Shown here piece after piece: positions 1-64,000 of a DNA stretch of 64,000 bases. The DNA lies in assembly GCA_963771885.1 (NCBI GenBank), contig CAVYVF010000007.1, positions 96,001 through 160,000 of the forward strand. Reading direction: 5' to 3'. Origin of the DNA: Candidatus Bathyarchaeota archaeon. Lineage in GTDB: Archaea > Thermoproteota > Bathyarchaeia > TCS64. Position 1 is the stretch's first letter. Each line of letters opens with the position of its first letter. The position numbers were made by a program, and so were the translations under genes. Below the pieces are notes generated by a model. That model saw nothing but the letters and a program-made list of their open reading frames with translations. It was not told where the DNA came from and made no database searches.

Positions 1-1154
1 CCTATTCGGACCCTACATGATAGGTGGATCGAATCGGAGATACCCCCTTCCTAGAGATAACTGACTGATTCCTCATCTTCTCAGAGATCGGTGCAGTCTG
101 CTCCTATTCCAGGCGGGGCTCCACATGAAGTTCTCCGACCTGCTAAAAGCGGGACGGCCAAGCCTAACAGTCGCGATCTTGGGAGTAATTTGCCATTCCC
201 ATCGGCATTAGCGCATCGAGTTGCTTGGATACGATCTGATCGTCGGAATGATCATAGGAGGATCACTTTCGGCGACAAGCATAGCGATCAGCCTAAAGTG
301 TCTCGGAGAATTCGAGCAGCTCGGGAACCCCAGAAGCTAAGCTAATAATCGGCGCAGCGGTCATCGACGATGTCCTCGCACTCAGCATAGCCTCAGTTAT
401 ACTTAGCGTATTTCCGATCCCCTTAGCTCAGGTTCACCTCAGTCCTTCGCTCGGTAGGCTTCACACTCATACTGTGGTTCGTCCTCTCAGCGGTCACAAG
501 CGAGTGGTGCCGTGGTTTACGGAGTGGTTCAACCGACTGGAGAGGCTAGACCCAGTGAGGCAGAACATCGTGCCACTCGCGTCTATCATGCTCTGCTTCG
601 GCTTCGCAGGAGCCTCAGGTCTACTCGGGCTCAGCCCACTCGTCGGAGCCTTCATGGCTGGCATGGCAGTAGCAGGAAGCAGGTTCCATAGGGATGTCTC
701 AGAGTTCACAGAGAATCTTTCAGTCCTATTCGTTCCCCTTTTCTTCATAGTGGCTGGTGCTAACGTTAACCCCTATGCGATGTTGAGTGGCGACTTTCTA
801 CTGATTGGGATTCTCAGCCTCGGAGCGGTAGTAACTAAGCTGGTTGGCTGTGGTATCCCGGCGCAATACTTCCTTAAGAATAAAGAGAAGGGGTTGCGTG
901 TCGGCTATGGGATGATCAGTCGGGGTGAGATAGGGTTAGTTATTGCTAGTATAGGGAAGAACTATGGAATAATCACTGATGAGGTGTACGTTGCGTTAAT
1001 CGTTGTGATCTTCATCACGACAATTTTACCCCCGATTTTGCTTGGGAATAGCTTCCTCAATGATCCGAGCTGTATGTTGCCTGACTACATTAAAGAACGT
1101 GCAAACCATCACAAACTAAGACAAAAAAATGAGGATGATTCTCGTATCCCGTGA
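1..1154 (+). CDS. Cation:proton antiporter (CPA2/KefB-like), 5'-partial, several indels in first ~500 nt
   Basis: ORF 474-1154 has GLSPLVGAFMAG, FVPLFF and GMISRGEIGLVIA; upstream fragments in other frames encode IIGAAVIDDVLAL (~346-385) and LFQAGLHMKF. Confidence 0.8.
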
Positions 1155-1319
1155 AAAATCATCTTAAAAATTTAAAAATTATGCGGTTTGGTGCGGTGGG
1201 TGTGTAGAGAGGGAGCGTGGAGAGAAGACGTAGGGAAATGCGGGAGTCAGTCGGAGAACAAAGAGAGGGGTTTTGGGTAAAACAATTTACCCTCAACGAC
1301 CATATCTCTATGATAAAGT

Positions 1320-2354
1320 ATGTTGGGAGAGGAAAGCGTCGAGAAGAGCATCGAGTGGCTTCTTGAGAACGGCTCGGCGCCGGTCCGGTACATGACGCTC
1401 CTCAGGATCGTGGGTGAAGATCCTGCGTCGCCGGAGATGCACGAGCTCTGGAGGGAGGCGCAGCGCCACCCCGACAACATCGAGGCGTTCACGAAGCAGA
1501 AACCCGACGGCTCCTGGTGCACGGGAGGTTCCTGGGCACCAAAGCCAAGCTACGTGCCCCTAGGAGGCTGTACACCAGTCAGTCCCAAGTACGTCACTAC
1601 ATCGTGGCTCCTCAACATACTTGGCGACGCGGGCTACACAGCCGCCGACCCGCGTATCTCAAAGGCTGTGGAGTATGTCCTCAAGTTCCAGCGCCCAAAC
1701 GGGGTGCTCGTCGAGCACCAAAAGCCATTATCCGATGAGGATCACGATGAGAATCCCCGGAACGTCCCCTGCAGGATGAGCATACAGCTCACGGGGCTCG
1801 CCAAGGTCGGCGCAGCAGACGACCCACGCGTGCGCAAGGGATTTGACGTCCTCCTACACTGGCAACGCGAGGACGGCGGCTGGGTACAGGAAGGACACAG
1901 GGACGGGACGGTAGCCCCCTACAAACTCTGGACGCGCAGTTGCCCCTGGGTCACCTTCTTCACCTGCAACGCCCTCCATGCGAGCCGCTTACCTGTGTAC
2001 CGCGAACCCCTCCGCAGAGGCCTCAACTTCATACTTTGGCATCTGAACCAGAAACGAAGAACGGACATTCGACGCTTCTTTTGGCATGGGCACGAACCCA
2101 TCCGCGAGCTAGTCATGCTCGCAGAGAACGGCTTCGGTAGAGACGAGCCCGCAATTGAGAACTTGCTAGAATGGCTCGAAAAGATGTACGACCCCGAGAC
2201 CGGCTCATACAGGTACAACGGGAAACCAATCTCAAAGATGTCATTACGTGAGGACGGTGGAGACCCACGTGTCATGAAGTATCGCCTCTACCACCTCATC
2301 GAGGAAGACTGGCTCACCTACTGGATGACCAGGATCGAGAAGTGCTTCCTTTAG
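1320..2354 (+). CDS. Prenyltransferase/squalene-cyclase repeat (alpha/alpha barrel) protein, function unknown
   Basis: QW-type repeats QKPDGSW, FQRPNG, WQREDGGW; helical pattern. Confidence 0.65.
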   Translation: MLGEESVEKSIEWLLENGSAPVRYMTLLRIVGEDPASPEMHELWREAQRHPDNIEAFTKQKPDGSWCTGGSWAPKPSYVPLGGCTPVSPKYVTTSWLLNILGDAGYTAADPRISKAVEYVLKFQRPNGVLVEHQKPLSDEDHDENPRNVPCRMSIQLTGLAKVGAADDPRVRKGFDVLLHWQREDGGWVQEGHRDGTVAPYKLWTRSCPWVTFFTCNALHASRLPVYREPLRRGLNFILWHLNQKRRTDIRRFFWHGHEPIRELVMLAENGFGRDEPAIENLLEWLEKMYDPETGSYRYNGKPISKMSLREDGGDPRVMKYRLYHLIEEDWLTYWMTRIEKCFL

Positions 2355-2497
2355 AAGTGACGCCTACTTAATCCAGTGATCCTCGAACACCTCATACTGA
2401 GTTATGGGTCATGGGATACTACGGGCAGTATGTCGTTCTATCCCTAATTTAACTCACAAGTTATTTCACCTCAAACAGCCAATCTAAGCCGATCACA

Positions 2498-3556
2498 TTG
2501 AGTCTGTCAGGTTTGGACGGCGACCTCTCGGGGCTACCCATATTGAGGAACGCCAAGAGGAGGCGCTCCAGCAGCTACGACCGTACCGGCGGCAACAAGG
2601 ACTTTATTACAGTCCGCGCGGGGGAGACCGCGACCCTCGCCGAGATGGAGGGAGCAGGAGTTGTCAAACACATCTGGGTAACGATACGTACACGCGACGA
2701 GTTCTTCCTACGTAAGCTTGTGCTCCGGGCATACTGGGATGGCGAGAAAAGCCCGAGCATCGAGGTCCCCATCGGCGACTTCTTCGGCATAGGCCACGCC
2801 ATCAGTAAGAACTACGTCTCCGCTCCCCTACAGATGAGTCCCGAGGACGGGAAAGGCTTCAACTGCTGGTTCCCCATGCCCTACGCGAAGGGCGCCAAGA
2901 TCACGGTTGAGAACCAGGGCTCATGGGACTGCGAGTCCTTCTACTACTACGTCGACTACGAGGAACACAAGGCGTTGCAGGATGGGCTCGGGAGGTTCCA
3001 CGCCACATGGAACCGCGAGAACCCCACAGAGGGCGACAACTCAGACGAGTGGGACAACCCAACATGGCTCTTCCGCGGCGAGAACAAGGAGGGCAAGGAG
3101 AACTACGTCATCCTCGAAGCCGAGGGAAAAGGCCACTACGTCGGCTGCAACATGAACGTCCACAACCTACGCCCCACGGCGCGCTTCAACTGGTACGGCG
3201 AGGGAGACGACATGATCTACATAGACGGAGAGAAGACCCCGAGCCTCATCGGAACGGGAACCGAGGACTTCTACGGGATGAGCTGGTGCCCGACGCAGGA
3301 GTACTGCGCCCCATACCACGGGCTACCCCTCCCCGGCTCCGACAAGAACTGGAACGGCAAAATCACGTGGTACCGATACCACATCCTCGACCCTATCTAC
3401 TTCGAGAAATCCATCAAGGTCACCATCGAGCACGGACACGCCAACAAGCGCAGTGACGACTACAGCAGCACCGCCTACTGGTACCAGACCGAGCCACACA
3501 AGAAGTTTAAGCCCCTCCCACCCGTACAGGAGCGTCTACCGAGGGAGAAGCCATGA
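2498..3556 (+). CDS. Glycoside hydrolase family 172 (DUF2961), cytoplasmic
   Basis: SSYDRTGGNKD, GVVKHIWVT, YWDGEKSPS, WYGEGDDMIYIDGE, GTGTEDF, YRYHILDPIYF, IEHGHAN, SSTAYWYQ; no signal peptide. Confidence 0.9.
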   Translation: MSLSGLDGDLSGLPILRNAKRRRSSSYDRTGGNKDFITVRAGETATLAEMEGAGVVKHIWVTIRTRDEFFLRKLVLRAYWDGEKSPSIEVPIGDFFGIGHAISKNYVSAPLQMSPEDGKGFNCWFPMPYAKGAKITVENQGSWDCESFYYYVDYEEHKALQDGLGRFHATWNRENPTEGDNSDEWDNPTWLFRGENKEGKENYVILEAEGKGHYVGCNMNVHNLRPTARFNWYGEGDDMIYIDGEKTPSLIGTGTEDFYGMSWCPTQEYCAPYHGLPLPGSDKNWNGKITWYRYHILDPIYFEKSIKVTIEHGHANKRSDDYSSTAYWYQTEPHKKFKPLPPVQERLPREKP

Positions 3557-5097
3557 AAGTAGGAGTCTTCAGTCCGAACGACGCCCGCCCATGGGTCAGA
3601 GCGGACAACATCGACATGATGATCAACCAGGAGAAGCTACTCGTCGACGCCCTGAAGAAGGCGAAGGTCGAGGTTACCCGCGGCGGCGAAAAACATTCAA
3701 AGATGGACCAGATAGCCTGGAACACCAAGCTCGTCCAGGAGCACATAAAGCACATCGCCGCAGCGAAGCCCGAGACCCTCATCATAAACCAAGGTAGTTG
3801 GACGTTCCCCTGGGACAGCGTAGACGCCGTTAAACGATACGCCGCCGAGACAGGCGACATACCCCGCGTCGTCATGTTCAGCCACAAGGACCCGACCGTC
3901 CCCGGCCTAGTTGCTGGGATGGCGGCGGGCGGGGGACTCACACGCATTGGCGTACCATTCAACCACATCTTCGGCGACATCAAATCCGATAAGACCGTTA
4001 TCAAGCGCCTATTAGCAATACTCGGGTTCAACGAGCGCAGAGCAGCCGAGGCGGAGACTGCGAAGAGGGTCATAGTAGACCTCAAGGCTCAGAAGTACCT
4101 AGCCCTCGGAGGCATGAGCCTCAAGATGCCGACGACGACAGCGGACGTTGACCAGTGGCAAAAGCTCTTCGGAATCAGCTACGAGGCCCTCGACCAGAGC
4201 GAGCTGCTGCGCAAGGCTCTCACCATGGTGGAGTGGAGCGGAAAGCCCGGCGAGGGCAAGTACAAGATACTCGACCCCCGCCTCAAGAAGGCCGCCGACC
4301 ACATCCAGAAACACGGCAAGATCAGCTACGAGCGCCCCAAGCTCAAAGAGTTCGCAAAGATGCTCCTACAGCTCAGCCTCTACTACGCGGGCGAGGACAT
4401 CGTCGACGAATACAGCGTCACGTTCGCGGGCATAAAATGCCAGGACGAGCTGAGCGCGCAGCATTGCACGGCTTGTCTCATGGCCGCCTACCTGAGCAAC
4501 GACGTCGGACCAGACGGCAAGCCTAAGAAGGTGATTCCCATCGCCTGCGAGAACGATATGGACTCCGCCCTCACACAATTAATAATGCACCTAGCATCGG
4601 GCAAGCCGGCTGGCTTCGGAGACTTCCGCGACGTCGAGAACGGCCTCCTCTACATAGTCAACTGCGGGCAACACCCACCCTACTTCTTCGGCGGACCCGA
4701 GATGGACTCGGCGAAGAAACTCGACGAGGTCGAGTACATGGGCCAGGAGATTTTCTATGACGCGGGAGGCAGCAGCGTAAGAGGCAGGACCCCCGGCGGC
4801 CACGTTATGACTGTAGCGCGCCTCGGGAGGGAGAACCTACGCTACCGCCTCGTCGCCAGTGTCATCGAGACACAGCCTGTAGAGCCCGAAGAACATGAGA
4901 AGTACAACCCGAGCTGGCCCATCATCAAGGGTAAGATACCCATGACCGATGAGGAGATCATCAGTGTCTGGCCCTGCAACCACCTAGGCTTCGCCTACGG
5001 CGATCTAACCCCCGCCCTCGCTGAGATCGCTCACCGCCTCGACATCGGCTACACCATCTACGACGCCGACGGCAACAAGTACCACAAACCGACGTGA
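3553..5097 (+). CDS. fucI: L-fucose/D-arabinose isomerase family protein
   Basis: YLALGGMS, ACENDMDS, GFGDFRD and WPCNHLGF parallel the FucI metal/catalytic Glu, Asp and His motifs; ATGA overlap with the upstream gene. Confidence 0.75.
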   Translation: MKVGVFSPNDARPWVRADNIDMMINQEKLLVDALKKAKVEVTRGGEKHSKMDQIAWNTKLVQEHIKHIAAAKPETLIINQGSWTFPWDSVDAVKRYAAETGDIPRVVMFSHKDPTVPGLVAGMAAGGGLTRIGVPFNHIFGDIKSDKTVIKRLLAILGFNERRAAEAETAKRVIVDLKAQKYLALGGMSLKMPTTTADVDQWQKLFGISYEALDQSELLRKALTMVEWSGKPGEGKYKILDPRLKKAADHIQKHGKISYERPKLKEFAKMLLQLSLYYAGEDIVDEYSVTFAGIKCQDELSAQHCTACLMAAYLSNDVGPDGKPKKVIPIACENDMDSALTQLIMHLASGKPAGFGDFRDVENGLLYIVNCGQHPPYFFGGPEMDSAKKLDEVEYMGQEIFYDAGGSSVRGRTPGGHVMTVARLGRENLRYRLVASVIETQPVEPEEHEKYNPSWPIIKGKIPMTDEEIISVWPCNHLGFAYGDLTPALAEIAHRLDIGYTIYDADGNKYHKPT

Positions 5098-49983: not shown

Positions 49984-52167
<2,184 letters not shown>

Positions 52168-52274
52168 TCATAAGCGCATAAAACTCCCTCCTCTTTGATC
52201 TGTGCGCTAAAATGAACACCTTCAAATTATTTGCTCAACTACAATTATCGTGATTAGGCAGAGGAGAATTCTCA

Positions 52275-53276
52275 GTGTCGTCCATGGGCATTTTTAACGG
52301 CTTCGTGCTTGACGGGTTGATACTACTAGGCGCTCTTCTAGTCCTCAACAAGGCGAGTGGCTGGGCGATCGAAAACGTTGTCAAGGTCGCTGATATTAGT
52401 GGATTCGGAAAAACCACCGTTGGCTTCCTAATTATTGGCCTCTCAACTAGTCTACCCGAGTTGAGTGTGGCCTTCTTCTCCGTCGGCGACCCAGAAGCGG
52501 TTGGAATATCGATCGGGAACATACTAGGCTCAAACATTGTGAACGTCTGCCTGATCCTCGGCGTCTGCATCCTCTATGCTACTTTTAAGCATAAACAGTG
52601 CATTCAGTTCCTGCCTTTACTTACAGGAGACGAGTTGAAGGACCTCCTATTTGGCCTCTTTATGGCGTCTGTGATACCTCTCGTTCTTATCTACATTGGG
52701 TATGCTAGCAGGATCGTAGGTATCGGGCTTCTACTGTTCTTTGCCTGGAATACTTACAAGATGATTAGGAAGAAAACAGTCGTCGAGGAAGCAGGACAAG
52801 GCCCCGAGAAGACCAAGCTTCCACGATATCTGGCGTTAACACTTATTGGGCTGATTGGAGTGGTAGGTTCTAGTTACTTCATCGTTGAATCGGCGACAAA
52901 CATCGCCGTTGGGATCGGTTTATCGAAGTTGGTCATTGGCGCTACGGTTATTGCGATTGGCACTAGTCTTCCTGAACTAGCAACGAGTTTAATCGCCACG
53001 AAGCACGACGAGATTAACATTGCCCTTTCGAATATCATTGGGAGTGGGATTATCAACCTCACACTTATCCTAGGTGCAACTTTGGCTCTCACGGAATTTA
53101 CGGTAAATATTTCAACCTATACTGAACTTGTGGTCTTTAGTCTCATCGCCAACATGTTTCTCTGGTATAGTCTTAGCGGAGATAGGATTTGCGAGAGGGA
53201 AGGCTACGTGCTCGTTGCTCTTTACGCAATTTTCTTGTTTGTTACACTGAGTGGCTATCGTAGTATCGTAATATAA
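52275..53276 (+). CDS. Na+/Ca2+ exchanger (CaCA, YrbG-like)
   Basis: Alpha repeats TSLPEL...GNILGSN and GTSLPEL...NIIGS. Confidence 0.9.
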   Translation: MSSMGIFNGFVLDGLILLGALLVLNKASGWAIENVVKVADISGFGKTTVGFLIIGLSTSLPELSVAFFSVGDPEAVGISIGNILGSNIVNVCLILGVCILYATFKHKQCIQFLPLLTGDELKDLLFGLFMASVIPLVLIYIGYASRIVGIGLLLFFAWNTYKMIRKKTVVEEAGQGPEKTKLPRYLALTLIGLIGVVGSSYFIVESATNIAVGIGLSKLVIGATVIAIGTSLPELATSLIATKHDEINIALSNIIGSGIINLTLILGATLALTEFTVNISTYTELVVFSLIANMFLWYSLSGDRICEREGYVLVALYAIFLFVTLSGYRSIVI

Positions 53277-53427
53277 TATGCAATATGAGTAATAGCAAAG
53301 ATCTAAAATTTGCAGAATTTATTTGAAGCGTGTGCGATTTGGAGGTGCGACGGCACGGCCACTCTAGTCGACTGCTGAACCGCACGCGCATTGCTAAAAC
53401 CATCAATATTGAACAGATGCCTTTTTT

Positions 53428-54624
53428 TCAGCTGTAAAGATCGCTGATCCGCTTATTCTCTCCAAATACCTGATGCACTTTTTTGAGCTCCGTAGGTATC
53501 TGGATACGCTGGGGGCACTTCTCCAGACACTTGCCACAATTTACGCATGTTGAGGCGTTACCATTAGACTTCACAGCATCAATATTCTTAGCAGACTTTT
53601 CCATTTCCCCATATCTCCTCTTCACCATCATGCGTCGAAGCCAGCTGCTCTCAGTCGACATATTATTAAGCAACGCGAAGTTGCCGGGAATATTCACACC
53701 CACCGGACAAGGCATACAGTAATTGCATGCAGTGCAGGGAACAAGTATCTTCTCACGATAAATATCAGCAACCTTAGAGATTACTTTCTGGTCATCATCG
53801 CTTAGGGTATTGATCCCAGACCTGTCGGCGCTTGCACAGTTCTCCTCGACCATACTCATAGATCCCATGCCACTCAGTACAGTGGAAACCTCCGGACGAT
53901 TCCAAAGGAACTGGAAGGCCCAGTCGACGGGAGATCTCTTAGTCCCCGAAGCATTCATGATCTCCAAGGCCTCCTTTGGCGGATTCGCGAGTCGTCCCCC
54001 TTTCAGGGGCTCCATCACCACGACGGCTACTCCCTTGCTGTGAGCATACTTGAGCCCCTCAGTAGTCGCTTGAACCCCTGTATCCATGTAGTTATACTGA
54101 ATTTGCGCCATATCCCATTGATAATAGTCGATGACCTCCTTGAATACGGGGAGATTATCATGAAAGCTGAAACCAATGTGATGAATCAGACCCTTCTCCT
54201 TCGCCTCTTTCATCTTATCCAATAAACCGAGTTTCTTTACCTTCTCAAAGCTACCCTTCTCCAGGTTATGGAACATGTAGAAGTCGATGTATTCGGTCTG
54301 AAGCCTCTCTAGGCTATTCTTCAGATAATGGTCAAAGTCCCCGCTGTTTCGAACCAGAAAGGTCGGGAGTTTGGTGGCGATCTTAACCCGATCCCTATAC
54401 CCATCCTTCAACGCGAGCCCAATTACCTTCTCACTGTCGCCGAGATGATACACATAGGCCGAGTCAAGATAATTAATGCCGAGATCTATTCCGCGTCGTA
54501 TTATTTTCACGGATTCATCCGTCTTCGCTCTCAGCCGATTGATCCTCCTAGGGGGGAGCCTCATACAACCAAAGCCCAGAGCAGATACCTCCCAACCTAA
54601 GGAGCCCATCTTTCGAAACTTCAT
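53428..54624 (-). CDS. Aldo/keto reductase with C-terminal 4Fe-4S domain
   Basis: LGFGCMRLP, DSAYVYH, IGFSFHD, MEPLKGG, CTACNYCMPCP, CVNCGKCLEKCPQ; ATG at 54624. Confidence 0.92.
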   Translation of the reverse strand: MKFRKMGSLGWEVSALGFGCMRLPPRRINRLRAKTDESVKIIRRGIDLGINYLDSAYVYHLGDSEKVIGLALKDGYRDRVKIATKLPTFLVRNSGDFDHYLKNSLERLQTEYIDFYMFHNLEKGSFEKVKKLGLLDKMKEAKEKGLIHHIGFSFHDNLPVFKEVIDYYQWDMAQIQYNYMDTGVQATTEGLKYAHSKGVAVVVMEPLKGGRLANPPKEALEIMNASGTKRSPVDWAFQFLWNRPEVSTVLSGMGSMSMVEENCASADRSGINTLSDDDQKVISKVADIYREKILVPCTACNYCMPCPVGVNIPGNFALLNNMSTESSWLRRMMVKRRYGEMEKSAKNIDAVKSNGNASTCVNCGKCLEKCPQRIQIPTELKKVHQVFGENKRISDLYS

Positions 54625-54728
54625 TGCAGACTCCTTTCCGGTCGAAGAATAAAACCCATTACTTTTGTAATCGTTACAGTACGATGCACGCGCATACAAT
54701 AAGTGGATAGAAAGATATGTGTCCAGAG

Positions 54729-55115
54729 TTATTTCCCGTAGGGTTTCGTTAACCATTGGAGTATCTCAAGAGTATAGCCTTCAGTGTCTTTGAATAGCAT
54801 CGTCTTCATATGTAGATAATTGACCTGCTTTGGGGGTAGCTCAATAGCAACTCCGGCAGCCACCAGTTTTCGATGCCATGCCTCGACATCGTCTGTGAAC
54901 CAGGTAAGCATAACTGGTTTGTTCTCAGCGGTTTGGAGGTGCCCCTTCTCGGAGTCGACTATTCCTACGAGGATGTTATCTGTTACTCTAAAGGCCTTGG
55001 CGAATCCAACATCTATGACCTTCTCGAACCCTAGTGTGTCATGATAGAAGGCTTCTGCGCGGCCTATGTCTTTGTAATAGAAGAACGTGATCGTACCGTA
55101 AATCGGGGGATTCAT
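54729..55115 (-). CDS. VOC/glyoxalase family protein
   Basis: AEAFYHDTLGF, DDVEAWH, FKDTEGYTLEI. Confidence 0.85.
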   Translation of the reverse strand: MNPPIYGTITFFYYKDIGRAEAFYHDTLGFEKVIDVGFAKAFRVTDNILVGIVDSEKGHLQTAENKPVMLTWFTDDVEAWHRKLVAAGVAIELPPKQVNYLHMKTMLFKDTEGYTLEILQWLTKPYGK

Positions 55116-55385
55116 TGAACTTTGTTAAGCTGTTACTAGTTATGAGGTTTAGGTTCAGGCGCTCGACGATGATAGAAATCTAAGACATTCAAAGTTAGTC
55201 TAGATTCGGGACAGCGTCTACGATGGGTGTGCCATTATCATATTCGTAGACAGAGTACTACTGCATCGTGCATGCCGACGCCAGCATCCCCGATTACCCC
55301 CACTCGCCTGCTCGGGTGCTCGCCTTGTTTTTCCCCTCGGGAAATAGTTGTAAATTATTAAGCGATGCTGATTTGGGAGCCGTTT

Positions 55386-56318
55386 CTACTCCATGTACAG
55401 CCGTTTCGCGTTCTCCCAGTACAACTTTTTGAGAATGGATTGAGGCAGATTAAGGCCATTAATCACCGTTCCCCCCGTGTCCTTGGTATCTGCATCGGGG
55501 AAGGGCAGCGGAGTATCTCGTTCACTGGTTTCCCAGAGAATTCGCTGCGCAACGTATCTGCCTGAAAAGTAATCCCGGTCTTTTTCACTGGAGGAGACGT
55601 CGGTTCCGAATAGAACCCTATCCGAGTACTTCAGCATGAATTCTCGTGCTTTCTCCGTGTCTTTACTAAGCTCGCGGGCCATCCACCTCGATGAAGCGGT
55701 GTCTACTACGAAGTTGGGGTACTCGTCCATCCACCTCGTTAACTCAGGTAATCTTTGTATCTCTGGCTGTGCCCCGAGATGAGGGATCTGGAATTTTAGC
55801 TTAGAATGTCTAGATAATAGATCCTCTAACTCTCTTAGGTGCGCCTCCTTTGTTCCATACTTCTCCGAATTATTGTATTGAGACGCATAGTAGGTGTCAG
55901 GATCACCGATGTGGATGATGAGTGGGATTTCGTTGTCCTCTAAGGCTTGAAAGATTGGCTCTAGTCTGCGGTTACTAATCTGGAAATCCTTCGGAACCGT
56001 AATCCAGTCACGCCAGCGGGGTCCAAACCAAGTCTTAGCGAGAGCGTATCCTTGGTCCCTGATTTTTGATATCTCATTAAGGACAGCTTCGACATTGTAC
56101 TGAGCTATGTCTTTCAGTGAGAGGTACTTTGCGAAGATGAATCGATTAGGATATTTTTCCTTGGCGGCTTGAAATCCTTCTTCGTTATGGACGATCCCTA
56201 TCTGTTTCGAGACCCCGAAGTCATCTTCGATTTCTATCATCCGGGATATGTCATCAATTTTTCCGATGTGTGTATGTGAATCTATTATTGGGCCAGTGTA
56301 CTTCCAGGAATTTCTCAA
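55386..56318 (-). CDS. Amidohydrolase family protein
   Basis: IIDSHTH, IIHIGDP, PHLGA, RVLFGTD, WENAKRL. Confidence 0.88.
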   Translation of the reverse strand: MRNSWKYTGPIIDSHTHIGKIDDISRMIEIEDDFGVSKQIGIVHNEEGFQAAKEKYPNRFIFAKYLSLKDIAQYNVEAVLNEISKIRDQGYALAKTWFGPRWRDWITVPKDFQISNRRLEPIFQALEDNEIPLIIHIGDPDTYYASQYNNSEKYGTKEAHLRELEDLLSRHSKLKFQIPHLGAQPEIQRLPELTRWMDEYPNFVVDTASSRWMARELSKDTEKAREFMLKYSDRVLFGTDVSSSEKDRDYFSGRYVAQRILWETSERDTPLPFPDADTKDTGGTVINGLNLPQSILKKLYWENAKRLYME

Positions 56319-56629
56319 GTTGAACGTCTAGTGGGTTGAACTCACTCAAAAGCCATTCCTCTAGATGTATGCCTTGATCTCGGGTATGTGTTGCGCACTT
56401 TTAACAAAAATGTATGTGGACTGGACAGAATGAAGACTAATTAAAATGCTTGAATAGTGAAAATTGGGGAGGATTTGGAGTATTTGTTCAACTATTTGAC
56501 TTTAAATCTTCTAAATCAATCCCAATAATTTGCGCGCGGTGTGACTTCATTTCGAAGGATTGGGCTGGTTCTGTCTCTTTGTAGAAAAAGACCTTTATCA
56601 GATAATAGACGCTGAATATCGAGAGGCAT

Positions 56630-57914
56630 ATGAGCCAAGAAATTCCAACGAGCTCCGACGCCATTTTTGATGAGAACACGCGCGGATACTGTGGCATCCT
56701 CAAACTGAGGGGAACAGCAAGCATGTTCTCCTCCAAACTCGACGAACTCCTAGCGCAGCTCGATCACGCACAGATCGCGTGGATTGACTATATAGTCGAC
56801 GACTTCGAGAAAGACGCAGTAGAGTACACTAATAAAGCGGGTTTCTCACAGCAATCGTAAAGAAACCCTCGTCAATGTCAATGGAAGCTACGAGGACCAC
56901 GACACCGAGTTAGGCCTCCTACTACCCGCTATACATGTCGAAGGCTACGACGTCAACATAGAGCCTGCTCATCCTGATACGGGACAATCTCATTATGACC
57001 ATGCACACACATAAGCGGTCCCGCTTCTACCAGATGCGCCGCTATGGCGAGACCTACCTCAGAAAGCTCCCGAAGAAAGCCAATACAGTCGACATGGTAT
57101 CCCTCATACTCGTAAGGATAATCGATGAGAACAACTCCTGGAGCTTCAAGCAGCTTCAAGAAATGAATGAGCGAACCGAGACTCACGATGGATCTCAAGG
57201 ACCCAAACTCCGTTGATGCTCATGTAGGGAACCAGGTTTTTCAGCTGAAGAGGGGGCTACTCCGCTACCTTTCCGCTCTTTGGGGATTATCCGACACGTT
57301 ATCCAGTCTTCTCTAGGAGACGCTGATTTGCTCTCAGATACGCCGGAGATCGCGCAGCGAATCGTCTTCTTACAAAACGAGGTCCATCAACAATTGACAC
57401 TCTCCGAGCACCTATCAGGGGTTCTTGCCTCTAAGCCTGGAGAGTCTGAAATCAATCTACAACAATCAGCTTCAGGATAGAAATAACATGCTTCAGGATC
57501 TCAATAACAATATGACAGGAAAGGAATAATCTGCTGCAGGAGAAGAACAACCAGCTTCAAGACACCAATAATGCTCTCTCAGTTAAGAATAACCAGCTCT
57601 CTGAGAGGAACAACGACCTGGCGGAGCTTACAATTACGTTAACCAAGAGGAATAATCAGTTGACGTCGCAGAATAATCGACTTACGATGCTGGGTGCGTT
57701 TTTAGCGATTCTCGGCGCAGGCTTCATAGTCCCTAATACGATTGCAACTGTGATGTCGCAGACTAATATTTTCATGTTTGGACCGGGAGATATGATTTGG
57801 TATCTCGCCCTCATCGTCGGTTCTACACTTGTAACGCTTTACGCTGTCTTCTGGTGGGTGAAGAAGATTGGGTTGCTTCCAGCATCGAGGATGCCGAGAC
57901 AGGTGGCCCCGTGA
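56630..57914 (+). CDS. CorA-fold divalent cation transporter paralog 1, multiple frameshifts (assembly error or pseudogene)
   Basis: Fragments 56630-56860, 56995-57216, 57280-57480 and 57660-57914 align colinearly with the intact paralog at 61372-62862 (IAWIDYI, RFYQMRRY, IIDENNSW, VPNTIATV.SQTN). Confidence 0.8.
57461..57671 (+). repeat. Coding tandem repeat: ten 21-nt units (NNxLxxx heptads), one extra nt
   Basis: NNQLQDR NNMLQDL NNNMxER NNLLQEK NNQLQDT NNALSVK NNQLSER NNDLAEL TITLTKR NNQLTSQ. Confidence 0.85.
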
Positions 57915-58224
57915 ATCCCTCTTAATTTTTTTACATTCATTACGTACGGCGACAAGTTAAAGTTTTTTTAAAAATGGTTGTACGCACGCAGATCATAACA
58001 ATTTGATGAACTTTGCAGAACTGGGTTGGTAGTTGTTTGGTAGCAGCGAGTAGAGGTCATATAAGTTAATTTAGTGGTTTATGTAGTATTTTATAATACA
58101 AAATATTAACTATCGTTTATGGTTTTTGTATGTGTATGACTAGGGTACGCTATGTGGTCTATTTAGGAAAGCCCTTAATCTTAGTTTAGTAATCATTGCA
58201 GTAACCTTTTGAGGTCTGCATAGT

Positions 58225-60946
<2,722 letters not shown>

Positions 60947-61371
60947 CTGCCTGTACATGTATGCTCGCGAGCGCCATCATACAAGGGACTAAGCAAAGCA
61001 TTTTTTACATGTCGAGGCGAGTGGCGTAATCCTTCTCTAATTCTTTCAAGAAGTGTGCGTTTGATCGTCATGCACGCGCATGATAAATTAATCTAATCGC
61101 CTCTTTAAAACGAAGGTAATATTCTCTTGATGGTTTGTGTCAGAATAATAATCTTGAGGGACTAAAACAGTAACTAATTCCCAGCCTTCATTACCAAGTT
61201 TATTCAAACCTGACTCTATACCAGAAGAAGCTGCCCATGTCTTATATTCCCACTTCATCAGATCACCAATGAAAACTATTCTTAAGTATAATTTGACATT
61301 TTCTATAAACGGATTTTCGTATTTAGTATGAAACTCACTATTCGCTATATGTGTGACCTATCCAAGTCAAG

Positions 61372-62862
61372 CTAATGGATGTTTTTTTCTAAAACCACAT
61401 GCTCTACGTTACTAATCACTACACCCAACTTCGATAGTTGCTTTATAATACTTTCAAAATCGGCATCATTTCCTTCTATTATAATTTTCAAACCAGTTGT
61501 TCTTTTATTTAATTCAATACTTTCTACATCGACTTTTGTTACTTCTGCCAAATTACCAATATTTAATGCCAAATCTGGAATCGACTGTTGATTCAAGGTG
61601 AATATTTTTAACGTAAGCCTACTTAGCTCCAAATAATATCCCTCTAATTCTTTTTTTTGTGGTTTATCATCATCGGACATATTCGGTAATAGTCCAACTC
61701 TTCGAACCCACCAATATACTACCCCCGTCGTAACCACCGTTGATAAAAGTATCAGAGCAATATACCAACCCGAATCACTCGGAGAGAACAAGAAAATATT
61801 CGTCTGAGAAAGCACAGTCGCGATAGTATTTGGCACAAAGAATCCGGCTCCAATTATCGCGAGAAACGCCCCGAGCAAAGTGATCCTATTATTAGTCGCC
61901 GTTAGCTCGTTATTTCTCTCCGATAAGGTGTTGTTGATACTCTGAAGCTGATTATTCCGGTCCTGTAACTGGTTGTTACGATCCTGTAACTGATTATTCC
62001 GGTCCTGAAGCTGATTATTGTAGATGGACTGCATACATTCAAGACCAGAGGCGAGAACCTCAGAGAGGTGCTCCGCCAAACCCAGTTGCTGGTGAACCTC
62101 GTTCTGAAGCATAGCTATCTTATCTAGAACCACGGGAGCATCGGAGACTAGGTCCGCGTCACCATACCTCAGAGAGGATAGAGTATCAGCCGTCCCCCAG
62201 AGAGCTGAGAGGTACCCTAATAGCGCGTGCTTCTGCTGATAGATCTGGTCACCGATGTGAGCCCGGATCATGCTCTCATCTTTCAAATCCATAGTCAGGT
62301 CGTCGCTTCGCTCATCCATCTCCTGCAGCTGCTTGAAGTTCCACGAGTTATTCTCGTCGATTATCCTCACCATTAGGAGGGTTAGCAGGTCGTTTGGCTT
62401 CATCTTCTTGGGCATTTTTCTGAAGTAGCTCTCGGCGTATCGACGCATCTGGTAGAATCGATGTCTTTTCCTCGTGTGTATGGTTAGGAGTATGTTTCCT
62501 CTGAGGAGTAGGAGTAGGGGCTCTATGTTGACGTCGAAGCCTTCTGCGTGGATTGCGGGGAGTAGTAAGCCCATCTCGGTGTCGAAGTCTTCGTAGCTTC
62601 CTCTTACGTCCATTAGCAGTCTCTTTACGAGTTGATCGCTGAAGCCGATTTTTTTCGCGGAGTCTGCTGCTTCTTTTTCGAAGTCTTCGATTATGTAGTC
62701 TATCCAGGCGATTTGGGCGTGGTCTAGGAGGTTTGTGAAGCCGTCGATCTTTGGGTTGTATTGGCTTTGTGTTCCTTTTTCTGTGAGGATGGCGCAGTAT
62801 CCTCGGTTGTTTTCGTCTAGTATTGGGTCAGTTTTTATGTGGTTTTGGTGGTTGGTGGACAT
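61372..62862 (-). CDS. CorA-fold divalent cation transporter paralog 2 with heptad insert and C-terminal DUF211-like domain
   Basis: Cytoplasmic alpha/beta domain (WIDY, LLTIH), long stalk helix, two C-terminal TMs, then ~85-aa RLTL..LKIIIEGND.DFESI..LG..I..VE.V tail. Confidence 0.82.
   Translation of the reverse strand: MSTNHQNHIKTDPILDENNRGYCAILTEKGTQSQYNPKIDGFTNLLDHAQIAWIDYIIEDFEKEAADSAKKIGFSDQLVKRLLMDVRGSYEDFDTEMGLLLPAIHAEGFDVNIEPLLLLLRGNILLTIHTRKRHRFYQMRRYAESYFRKMPKKMKPNDLLTLLMVRIIDENNSWNFKQLQEMDERSDDLTMDLKDESMIRAHIGDQIYQQKHALLGYLSALWGTADTLSSLRYGDADLVSDAPVVLDKIAMLQNEVHQQLGLAEHLSEVLASGLECMQSIYNNQLQDRNNQLQDRNNQLQDRNNQLQSINNTLSERNNELTATNNRITLLGAFLAIIGAGFFVPNTIATVLSQTNIFLFSPSDSGWYIALILLSTVVTTGVVYWWVRRVGLLPNMSDDDKPQKKELEGYYLELSRLTLKIFTLNQQSIPDLALNIGNLAEVTKVDVESIELNKRTTGLKIIIEGNDADFESIIKQLSKLGVVISNVEHVVLEKNIH
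61894..62019 (-). repeat. Coding tandem repeat: six 21-nt units (NNxLxxx heptads)
   Basis: NNQLQDR x3, NNQLQSI, NNTLSER, NNELTAT; synonymous codon variation between units. Confidence 0.9.
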
Positions 62863-62942
62863 TCACTAGCCTGCGAAGTCGGGTGCCCGATTTAGGCTTT
62901 GCGTGTGTGCATCTATCAAATGAGGTGAATGCCCGCTTGGTT

Positions 62943-63143
62943 TTAGATCCTTCTTGGGGGTCCACGCGGGGGGGCGTGAGGTGGGAGGGAGGGTGGCGGT
63001 GGATTTGGATGTTGTGATATCTTGGGTGAATCATTGGAAGGGACATCGGTTGTTCCATGAACGATTTGCATGTGGTGTTTGAGTTTCTCCTCTGATTTGA
63101 AGGGAATTCCACATATCACACATTTATGCTCTTTCTTCGGCAT
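62943..63143 (-). CDS. C2H2 zinc-finger microprotein with proline-rich tail
   Basis: HKCVICGIPFKSEEKLKHHMQIVH (C-x2-C-x3-F-x5-L-x2-H-x4-H); TATA-like TTTATAAA upstream (~63177-63184). Confidence 0.75.
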   Translation of the reverse strand: MPKKEHKCVICGIPFKSEEKLKHHMQIVHGTTDVPSNDSPKISQHPNPPPPSLPPHAPPRGPPRRI

Positions 63144-63589
63144 TACTCGTCGCCTGTTGATCTCTGGGAAAAATAGTTTATAAACACATTCTATGCCTCA
63201 TATAATTCACTATTTCCCTGATTTTCTCCATCAATACAAAAATACACCTCTGGATTTCTATGTATCACCTTTAAAGATAAACACTTTTTTCCTACACCCA
63301 ATAAGCCTCACTCGTTATCAACTAAGTTACCCATTGATTTTTTACCGAGTCCCATCTGCCCGCGGTCAAGCCACAATCTGAGATAAACGAATCTTACCCG
63401 TGTTCTGTTGTCCACTCCTCATTATTCGAGTCCCAGCGTCCCGCCTTGCGCGCCTGAGAGAGCGCCTCAATCTCCGGTTTTTCCATTGCCAACGTATAGA
63501 CAAATTCAGCCATTTGAACAGTTCCCTAGATAATACAAGGAGATATTAAACGCCCTTCTCCACTCGCATTACAGGATAATCGAGTTCCT

Positions 63590-64000
63590 CTACTGCACGA
63601 AGCAGGGCTGGCTCGAGTCTGCGATGGCGAAGAAAGAGTGCGACGACTGGGAGTGGATCGAAGAGTAGATGTTAGTTCGCCTGCGGGCCTTCTTTCTCTT
63701 AAGGAAGCTGAAGCTGCTGAACCGCGCCGTGATGATCCTCTCCGTCGAGAATATCTTCGCTGCGATCCAGAGCACAAGGACCGTGAAGACGCTGATGTAG
63801 GCGATGCTCCTGAAATAAGCCAGTAGTTGCCTAGAAAGGCAGCTTTAGTGGCGAGCATCGTGTGTGTGTAGGGGATCGCGAGCATGATCCACTGGATCGC
63901 CGGTGGTAGCATCTCGATGTCGCTGAACATGAGTATCATCGCCGGGATGATCAGCGGCACAATGAGGACACCTGTGAGGCTCTGGGCGCTGCGGACGCTG
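63590..64000 (-). CDS. ABC-2 type permease (NatB-like), 3' part only, frameshift near 63820
   Basis: SVRSAQSL...LAIPYTH...AAKIFSTERII hydrophobic pattern across two frames. Confidence 0.7.

Follow-up and report, generated by a model that had tools for sequence, protein, structure and literature searches.

The locus studied here raises the question of what a CorA-type pore helix gains when one of its heptads is repeated many times over. It lies in a 64,000-nucleotide stretch of a Candidatus Bathyarchaeota archaeon genome (contig CAVYVF010000007.1, positions 96,001 to 160,000; hereafter the window). Two genes of the CorA fold, p1 on the plus strand (56630..57914) and p2 on the minus strand (62862-61372), carry tandem units of the form NNxLxxx in the stalk helix leading into the membrane. 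Both depart from the family in a second respect, as the GxN motif, described as signature and filter of the CorA family (PMC6972854, PMC9276622), is absent. The answer favoured here, with confidence that is evenly balanced, is that these genes encode a divergent GxN-less archaeal CorA-fold protein with an amplified pore-helix heptad, likely pentameric and offering a gated cation path of changed selectivity and gating.

The p2 gene was a single open frame of 496 codons. Residues 1-400 (61663..62862, minus strand) comprised the alpha/beta funnel, a stalk helix with five added heptads, the first transmembrane helix (TM1), a loop and the second transmembrane helix (TM2), as assigned from PF01544, the structure model and the fold search. 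The array (61873..62019, minus strand) contained seven NNxLxxx units, two as in the common short form of the family and five extra (35 residues). An earlier reading made from the letters alone (the sequence-only reading) had listed six units at 62019-61894, and these were found exactly there, followed by a seventh (NN-R-I) at 61893-61873. The codon pairs it had named for identical residues (ctt/tta, gac/gat, cgg/cgt and aat/aac) were likewise present in p2. Tandem Repeats Finder reported just a 3.4-copy, 80% DNA repeat at 61948-62019, so that the period of the p2 array lies chiefly in the protein sequence. A contig of a related strain from another sequencing run covered 61653-62043, including the whole array, without gaps and with 31 differing letters. 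In six frames of the 2.46-megabase genome there were three runs of at least three tandem NNxLxxx units, against none in each of five triplet-shuffled genomes; the looser pattern NNxxxxx gave four runs, all within three gene copies (p1, p2 and a copy on contig C21).

The profile search that the sequence-only reading had proposed as a check placed p2 above the cut-off of PF01544 (CorA/MIT superfamily; 56.3 bits, cut-off 27). Against the CorA equivalog TIGR00383 (cut-off 200.75) p2 reached 28.9 bits and four homologues 48.7-72.1 bits, all below the cut-off. An AlphaFold2 monomer model of residues 1-400 (42-row alignment, mean predicted local distance difference test score (pLDDT) 83) contained a helix of 111 residues (243-353), unbroken through the array into TM1, and a second transmembrane helix at 361-389. 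The pLDDT was 85-92 over the array block and fell to 55-74 in TM1. In agreement with the sequence-only reading, the array is predicted to be a continuous part of the stalk helix, immediately ahead of TM1. The equivalent helix of a short homologue was modelled at 245-319. Fold search matched the p2 model to Thermotoga CorA (8TMB) with Z 23.7 over 322 aligned residues and to the soluble domain of Methanocaldococcus CorA with Z 21.3 (root-mean-square deviation (rmsd) 4.0 Å over 249 residues). Long and short models both scored Z ~23.6 to Thermotoga CorA, with rmsd to full-length chains mostly 18-24 Å for the long and 4-6 Å for the short model. In the models, funnel and membrane part superpose on Thermotoga CorA, and it is the spacing between them that differs in the long form.

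The extension was seen in no CorA, ZntB, CmaX or Mrs2 chain among the fold-search matches listed, which agrees with the earlier view that known structures hold no equivalent segment. A direct phmmer search of the PDB gave no CorA match, although the profile searches found CorA, and ESM Atlas returned generic archaeal CorA clusters only. NCBIfam coiled-coil matches (SMC, Rad50 and helical toxin families) were far under their cut-offs and stem from the array. The array alone (residues 270-333), predicted as four copies, scored 0.00 in two runs, and the controls likewise did not fold.

How the helix came to this length was followed in homologues. A search with p2 residues 1-400 gave 2284 matches, of which the best 120 were analysed. 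In all 119 with both stalk anchors the anchor distance was 39+7n residues, where n is the number of extra units; the heptad count suggested by the sequence-only reading thus gave differences in whole heptads only. The value of n was 0 in 20 homologues, 1 in one, 4 in two, 5 in five, 6 in 11, 7 in 28, 8 in 35, 9 in three, 10 in nine, 11 in one, 12 in two, 13 in one and 14 in one. Long forms made up 99 distinct protein clusters among the best 120, none with fewer than four extra units, and a second search with the longest form as query returned the same long set. A short-form query gave 80 GTDB loci (Micrarchaeota, Methanomicrobiales, Aenigmarchaeota, Thermoplasmatota and others), 79 with n=0 and one without an anchor. 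A further 82 loci had both anchors (6 from genomes and 76 of 80 from metagenomes), and n was whole in every one. Across 854 heptads the first Asn was kept in 93%, the second Asn in 100% and the Leu in 97%. No fused or very long form (701-2000 residues) was found at E 0.001 among 4910 candidates, which is weak evidence. Judged by these sequences, n=0 appears to be the state in most archaea, and n=4-14 that of one clade whose named members are mostly Bathyarchaeota.

Profile alignments also opened a gap of 7 residues in CorA of Methanocaldococcus, of Thermotoga and of this genome (the canonical copy), which means that the common short form already exceeds canonical CorA by one heptad. Distant relatives with the Pro-Asn-Thr motif (P0160, P0177 and P0179), and one that has kept GMN (P0166), had the canonical stalk length, and P0166 may be a transitional form linking canonical CorA with the GxN-less family. 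An alpha-helix rises 1.5 Å per residue, and with this value the predicted length added over the short form was 5.3 nm for p2, 9.5 nm for p1 and 14.7 nm for the longest homologue. The sequence-only reading had given 35 and 63 added residues for the two genes, which is correct relative to the common short form.

A core tree without the array was built from 150 rows, comprising 123 of 127 proteins (four fragments omitted), p2 and 26 of the 80 GTDB loci; all trees were quick LG+G4 trees with Shimodaira-Hasegawa-like approximate likelihood ratio support only. The 96 long forms were one clade (support 99); a single change separated long from short, and n changed at least 35 times over the whole tree. 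Of the four named long forms, three were Bathyarchaeota and one Thermoproteota. A separate array of two extra units occurred in four genomes (G170, G175, G204 and G236; loci L197-L200) of another family of the class, and grouping these with 20 sampled long forms was rejected by the approximately unbiased test (p-AU 0.005; 53 rows, the group being named after the tree was seen). Heptads thus appear to have been gained independently at least once more. Together with the proteins P0133, P0171 and P0269, these four genomes make up small expansions of one or two units, with other unit sequences, on other GxN-less branches. The joining of P0120 (one extra unit) to the long clade had a support of only 28.

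In 34 long genes, 2971 of 5419 unit-to-unit positions with the same residue used different codons, and one unit pair was identical in DNA. Over 78 pairs of genes with equal n (72 of them with n=8, non-independent), the ratio of nonsynonymous to synonymous substitution (dN/dS) was 0.06 for the array and 0.13 for its flanks, and the array is under purifying selection. Codon divergence and low dN/dS together indicate that the unit is selected as protein while the number of units is labile, and they bear out the earlier statement that the period is kept at protein level. In the n=8 group (within L118-L134, n=7-8) the array carried a net positive charge (mean +3.8), and the acidic C-terminal tail exceeded that of short forms by ~17 residues; this tail might run alongside the array. 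An assembly or slippage artefact, which the many assembly indels in this region and one within the p1 array would suggest, is refuted by the homologues: arrays stood in the 99 distinct clusters, codons had diverged at the 34 loci with DNA, and the contig from another run covered the p2 array gap-free. We regard such an origin as practically excluded.

The lability of n is what a passive spacer would show. In that case the array would be a rigid five-helix rod holding the subunits together, ions would exit sideways at the membrane surface, and unit number would be near-neutral, with only whole-heptad insertions and deletions. The changes of n on the tree included losses as well as gains, two paralogues in the same genome have 5 and 9 extra units, and in simulations water enters the CorA pore through helix packing defects at the cytosolic membrane surface (PMC4504495). 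Set against this, the array was more constrained than its flanks, although the gene pairs are non-independent; the lack of long forms with fewer than four extra units is a weak sign of a lower bound; and heptads were gained on at least one other, independent occasion. On this evidence a passive spacer is possible but rather improbable.

Two losses had been missed by the sequence-only reading, that of the GxN filter and that of the D89/D253 Mg2+ sensor. Columns of Thermotoga CorA were read by eye from one profile alignment, with the numbering anchored on the D89K and D253K marks. No row of the 150 had G[MVI]N in the loop. Where other CorA proteins have the GxN selectivity motif, the p2 loop (61798..61809, minus strand) reads Ser-Gln-Thr-Asn, as in the long clade generally, and its Ser and Gln were present in 96 of 96 long rows. 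The D89 column of the long rows held Gln in 58, Arg in 28, Lys in 6 and Glu in 2, and at the D253 column Asp was not among the five commonest residues in the 96 long and 54 short rows. By these columns the canonical D89/D253 M1 Mg2+ site has not been kept. Mg2+ sensing and Mg2+ transport therefore cannot be assumed, and the metal-sensing funnel of the sequence-only reading was not borne out.

Other pore positions were kept. Glu stood at the D277 column in 149 of 150 rows (Glu275 in p2, 62038..62040, minus strand, at the funnel-side edge of the insert; column of the Thermotoga pore ring by alignment read by eye) and Leu at L294 in 147 of 150. Where TM1 reaches its outer end, the Pro-Asn-Thr motif (61825..61833 in p2, minus strand) had Pro and Asn in 150 of 150, the Asn aligning with the pore-facing T305. 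Many acidic funnel residues were invariant. At the M291 column all 96 long rows had Gly or Ala; of the 54 short rows 4 did, and 49 had Val or Met.

The genome encodes a canonical GMN CorA (contig C2) and MgtE. A further, higher-scoring PF01544 match (its motif uninspected) was found in 5 of 5 other long-form genomes, and MgtE in one of the five. From this gene content the array protein would be an accessory and not the main Mg2+ importer of the cell. Presence of the family was patchy: with a threshold of E 1e-20, 11 genomes out of 301 in the class carried it. No neighbourhood was conserved among 34 long-form loci, whose neighbours were mixed in a list made by eye; clustering of all neighbouring open frames was swamped by wrong-frame ones. 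A P-type ATPase adjoined 3 of the 34 loci, and directly downstream of one long-form gene (L124:4291-4875) was a membrane protein that by its motif resembles the manganese exporter MntP.

These results also suit a protein that is not an uptake channel, namely a membrane-anchored sensor or a ligand-gated pore for another solute (the Asn rings could, for instance, accommodate anions or water). The missing filter and sensor site, the canonical CorA and MgtE of this genome, the further PF01544 matches of the other long-form genomes and the patchy distribution all fit. Polar coiled-coil cores contain water and ions (PMC13580157), and CRISPR-associated CorA proteins repurposed as second-messenger effectors give a precedent. 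The funnel, however, is that of an ordinary CorA fold, whereas the soluble domain of CRISPR CorA folds differently (PMC13294483). PADLOC gave no CorA match in 4 proteins, no partner gene recurred, and the many invariant acidic residues of the funnel also speak against such a role, which we consider unlikely. A defence-system reading was rejected, PADLOC having given weak coiled-coil matches only.

The structural meaning of the added unit was approached through its register. The insert sits between D277 and L280 of Thermotoga CorA by the profile alignment, with the unit's Leu at L280/T287, the next residue at S281, the first Asn at S284 and the second Asn at N285. In Thermotoga CorA, L280, M291, L294, A298 and M302 line the pore and the stalk measures 10 nm (PMC4504495), and L280, S281, S284 and N285 are reported to form a cytosolic inter-subunit seam where substitutions alter Mg2+ block and selectivity (PMC12933068). 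The unit would then be a copy of the L280-K286 seam. Since the Thermotoga register points the first Asn and the Leu to the axis, rings of Asn and of Leu would take turns along the tube and the second Asn would lie between neighbouring helices; the simply Asn-lined tube of the sequence-only reading is not supported.

The same register bears on a bundle other than a pentamer, that is, a trimer-like polar-core coiled coil with the NxxQD sub-motif as Ca2+ sites. The unit does include NxxQD, a motif that holds Ca2+ in trimeric cores if its Asn occupies position a (PMC13580157). That register, however, would put the 97%-conserved Leu outside, and the CorA-based register places the unit's Asn at b. 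Natural NxxQD is moreover mostly off-core (Asn at b, f or c in 90%; PMC13580157), and solved full-length CorA-family chains are pentamers (PMC6972854). Such a bundle is very unlikely.

In the favoured reading of a GxN-less cation path, the tandem heptads would lengthen a likely five-helix cytoplasmic pore by ~5 nm in p2 and ~9 nm in p1, each extra unit adding one axial Asn ring, one axial Leu ring and one inter-subunit Asn contact. Whole heptads would hold funnel and TM1 in rotational register, so that stalk rotation could still reach the membrane gate; keeping this register would explain why the stalk varies by whole heptads alone. As the long clade has Gly or Ala at the M291 gate position, the repeated seam may have taken over some of the barrier and ion discrimination otherwise provided by the membrane gate and the outer loop. 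Slippage would move the unit number between ~4 and 14 extra, and the channel would serve as an accessory beside canonical CorA. In Mrs2, acidic funnel helices adjoin a basic ring at the membrane (PMC11919701); in long forms they would lie beyond reach of that ring. A bolder version, held only tentatively and somewhat doubtful, is that selectivity and gating have been rebuilt in the cytoplasm, a five-helix tube of Asn and Leu rings 4-15 nm long replacing GxN and D89/D253, with its length tuning conductance or ion threshold. It would be the longest CorA-type pore known.

Several points weigh against a cation path of this kind. With GxN and D89/D253 both absent, the substrate may not be a divalent cation, and substitutions at the GMN entrance abolish measurable current in Thermotoga CorA (PMC12933068). 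The 7-16 Leu rings could block hydrated ions instead of conducting them. Array and M291 change fell on one branch; being one event, their association is without statistical weight. The p2 protein has n=5 and its 90%-identical neighbour has n=7, a difference between close relatives that would be natural if length were of little consequence, and the 34 long-form loci shared no gene neighbourhood. The register comes from a single profile alignment, read by eye, and the periodicity of this region lets the gap move by seven.

The second CorA-fold gene of the window carries its array in a broken reading frame. The sequence-only reading took both paralogues as CorA-like array genes; p2 is intact, and p1 was broken by ~8 indels in this assembly and was followed by three-frame translation and tblastn. 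Its array (57461..57692, plus strand) contained eleven units, nine of them extra (63 residues). The ten units announced for 57461-57671 were present, but they did not form one frame, as a surplus base in the third unit splits the array over frames; the unit at 57630-57650 was without the Asn pair, and an eleventh followed at 57672-57692. The copy on C21 was 86.8% identical to p1, with ~8 indel sites in the coding region, and the nine-extra array stood in a single frame in this copy and in homologue P0029. Three p1 indel sites were read without indel in related-strain contigs, which were small shares of their runs and covered p1 in patches only. Among the sequencing runs listed as containing this DNA, none was an RNA run. 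Between p1 and p2 lay a P-type cation ATPase (58225..60946, plus strand; PF00122, PF13246 and PF00690), also frameshifted in this assembly, with indels at 59717, 60110-60112 and 60301 that were not common to related-strain contigs. Because the ATPase is frameshifted too and related strains are without these indels, the p1 breaks are probably assembly errors; a pseudogene is less likely.

The 3' part of the p2 frame in this assembly contained a DUF211 (COG1888) domain (61372..61632, minus strand; PF02680, 44.1 bits), with guanine-cytosine (GC) content of 30% versus 48%. It is preceded by an 8-base homopolymer at 61651-61658, and with one base fewer the p2 frame ends two codons later. A DUF211 tail on a CorA-fold gene occurred in p2 alone (1 of 82 loci), and with the homopolymer at the junction a CorA-DUF211 fusion as part of the system was rejected. 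The join is likely an assembly artefact of the homopolymer, and DUF211 is treated as a separate small gene. In close relatives (L112 and L113) the stretch at 61372-61658 was missing from the same place and the ATPase stood directly next.

Elsewhere, the 5-kilobase contig C21 (L205) carried at 135-4967 another ATPase (96.8% identical to that of the window) and the p1-type CorA in changed gene order; either the pair was duplicated, or the bin, with 6.7% contamination, includes a second strain. A Na+/Ca2+ exchanger-family gene (52275-53276) and the P-type ATPase lay near both CorA-fold genes as a small cation-transporter cluster, and the GC content of the window dropped to 44-49% over 52000-64000.

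The interest of the family lies in how funnel and gate are coupled along the 10-nm CorA stalk, which is disputed between rotation, dilation and asymmetric displacement (PMC3629940, PMC4504495, PMC12933068). Across the homologues the stalk helix exceeds that of solved CorAs by 1, 2, 3 or 5-15 heptads, a natural series in which each insert would repeat the seam recently linked to Mg2+ block and selectivity. Coupling by rotation predicts that whole-heptad inserts are tolerated; coupling by contact, from acidic funnel helices to the basic membrane ring, predicts that they are not. The family also raises the question of what the CorA fold carries without GxN, and offers a predicted natural polar-lined five-helix tube of adjustable length. 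Were the filter indeed rebuilt in the cytoplasm, it would be a natural length-programmable channel. No description of a GxN-less array family or of a length-variable CorA stalk was found in a search of largely open-access literature. The loss of GxN and the heptad-quantised pore helix are the two surprising features of the family.

Compared with known systems, the family was closest to CorA of Thermotoga maritima (8TMB, 4I0U and 3JCF) and Methanocaldococcus jannaschii (4EV6), with which it shares the alpha/beta funnel, the stalk helix running into TM1, two transmembrane helices, the acidic ring at D277, Leu at L294 and the seam Asn at N285. It differs in the absence of GxN and D89/D253, in Gly or Ala at M291 in the long clade, and in a stalk longer by one heptad in the common short form and by 5 to 15 heptads in the long clade. 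ZntB, CmaX and Mrs2 (5N9Y, 7NH9, 8IP3 and 8Q8P) have the same fold (Z 14-19) and are 2-TM-GxN proteins, fitting the short model at 4-5 Å and the long model at 21-24 Å. In fungal Mrs2 the stalk helix has 70 residues, compared with 111 in p2, and regulatory metal sites in Mrs2 can shift within the funnel (PMC11919701). CRISPR-associated CorA effectors of types III-B and III-D2 are a precedent for a CorA-type membrane part in another use (PMC13294483), but they have another soluble fold and stand in cas loci, whereas the array family has an ordinary CorA funnel; PADLOC CorA models gave no match at E 0.01 in the 4 proteins, and no cas genes were recognised by eye beside the 34 long-form loci. Polar-core coiled coils, such as the N@d stalks of trimeric autotransporter adhesins and phage P22 gp26 with NxxQD, also have heptads with regular Asn and possible axial water or ions (PMC13580157). 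Those are trimeric fibres, whereas here the unit of an Asn pair and a Leu lies within the pore helix of a membrane channel fold.

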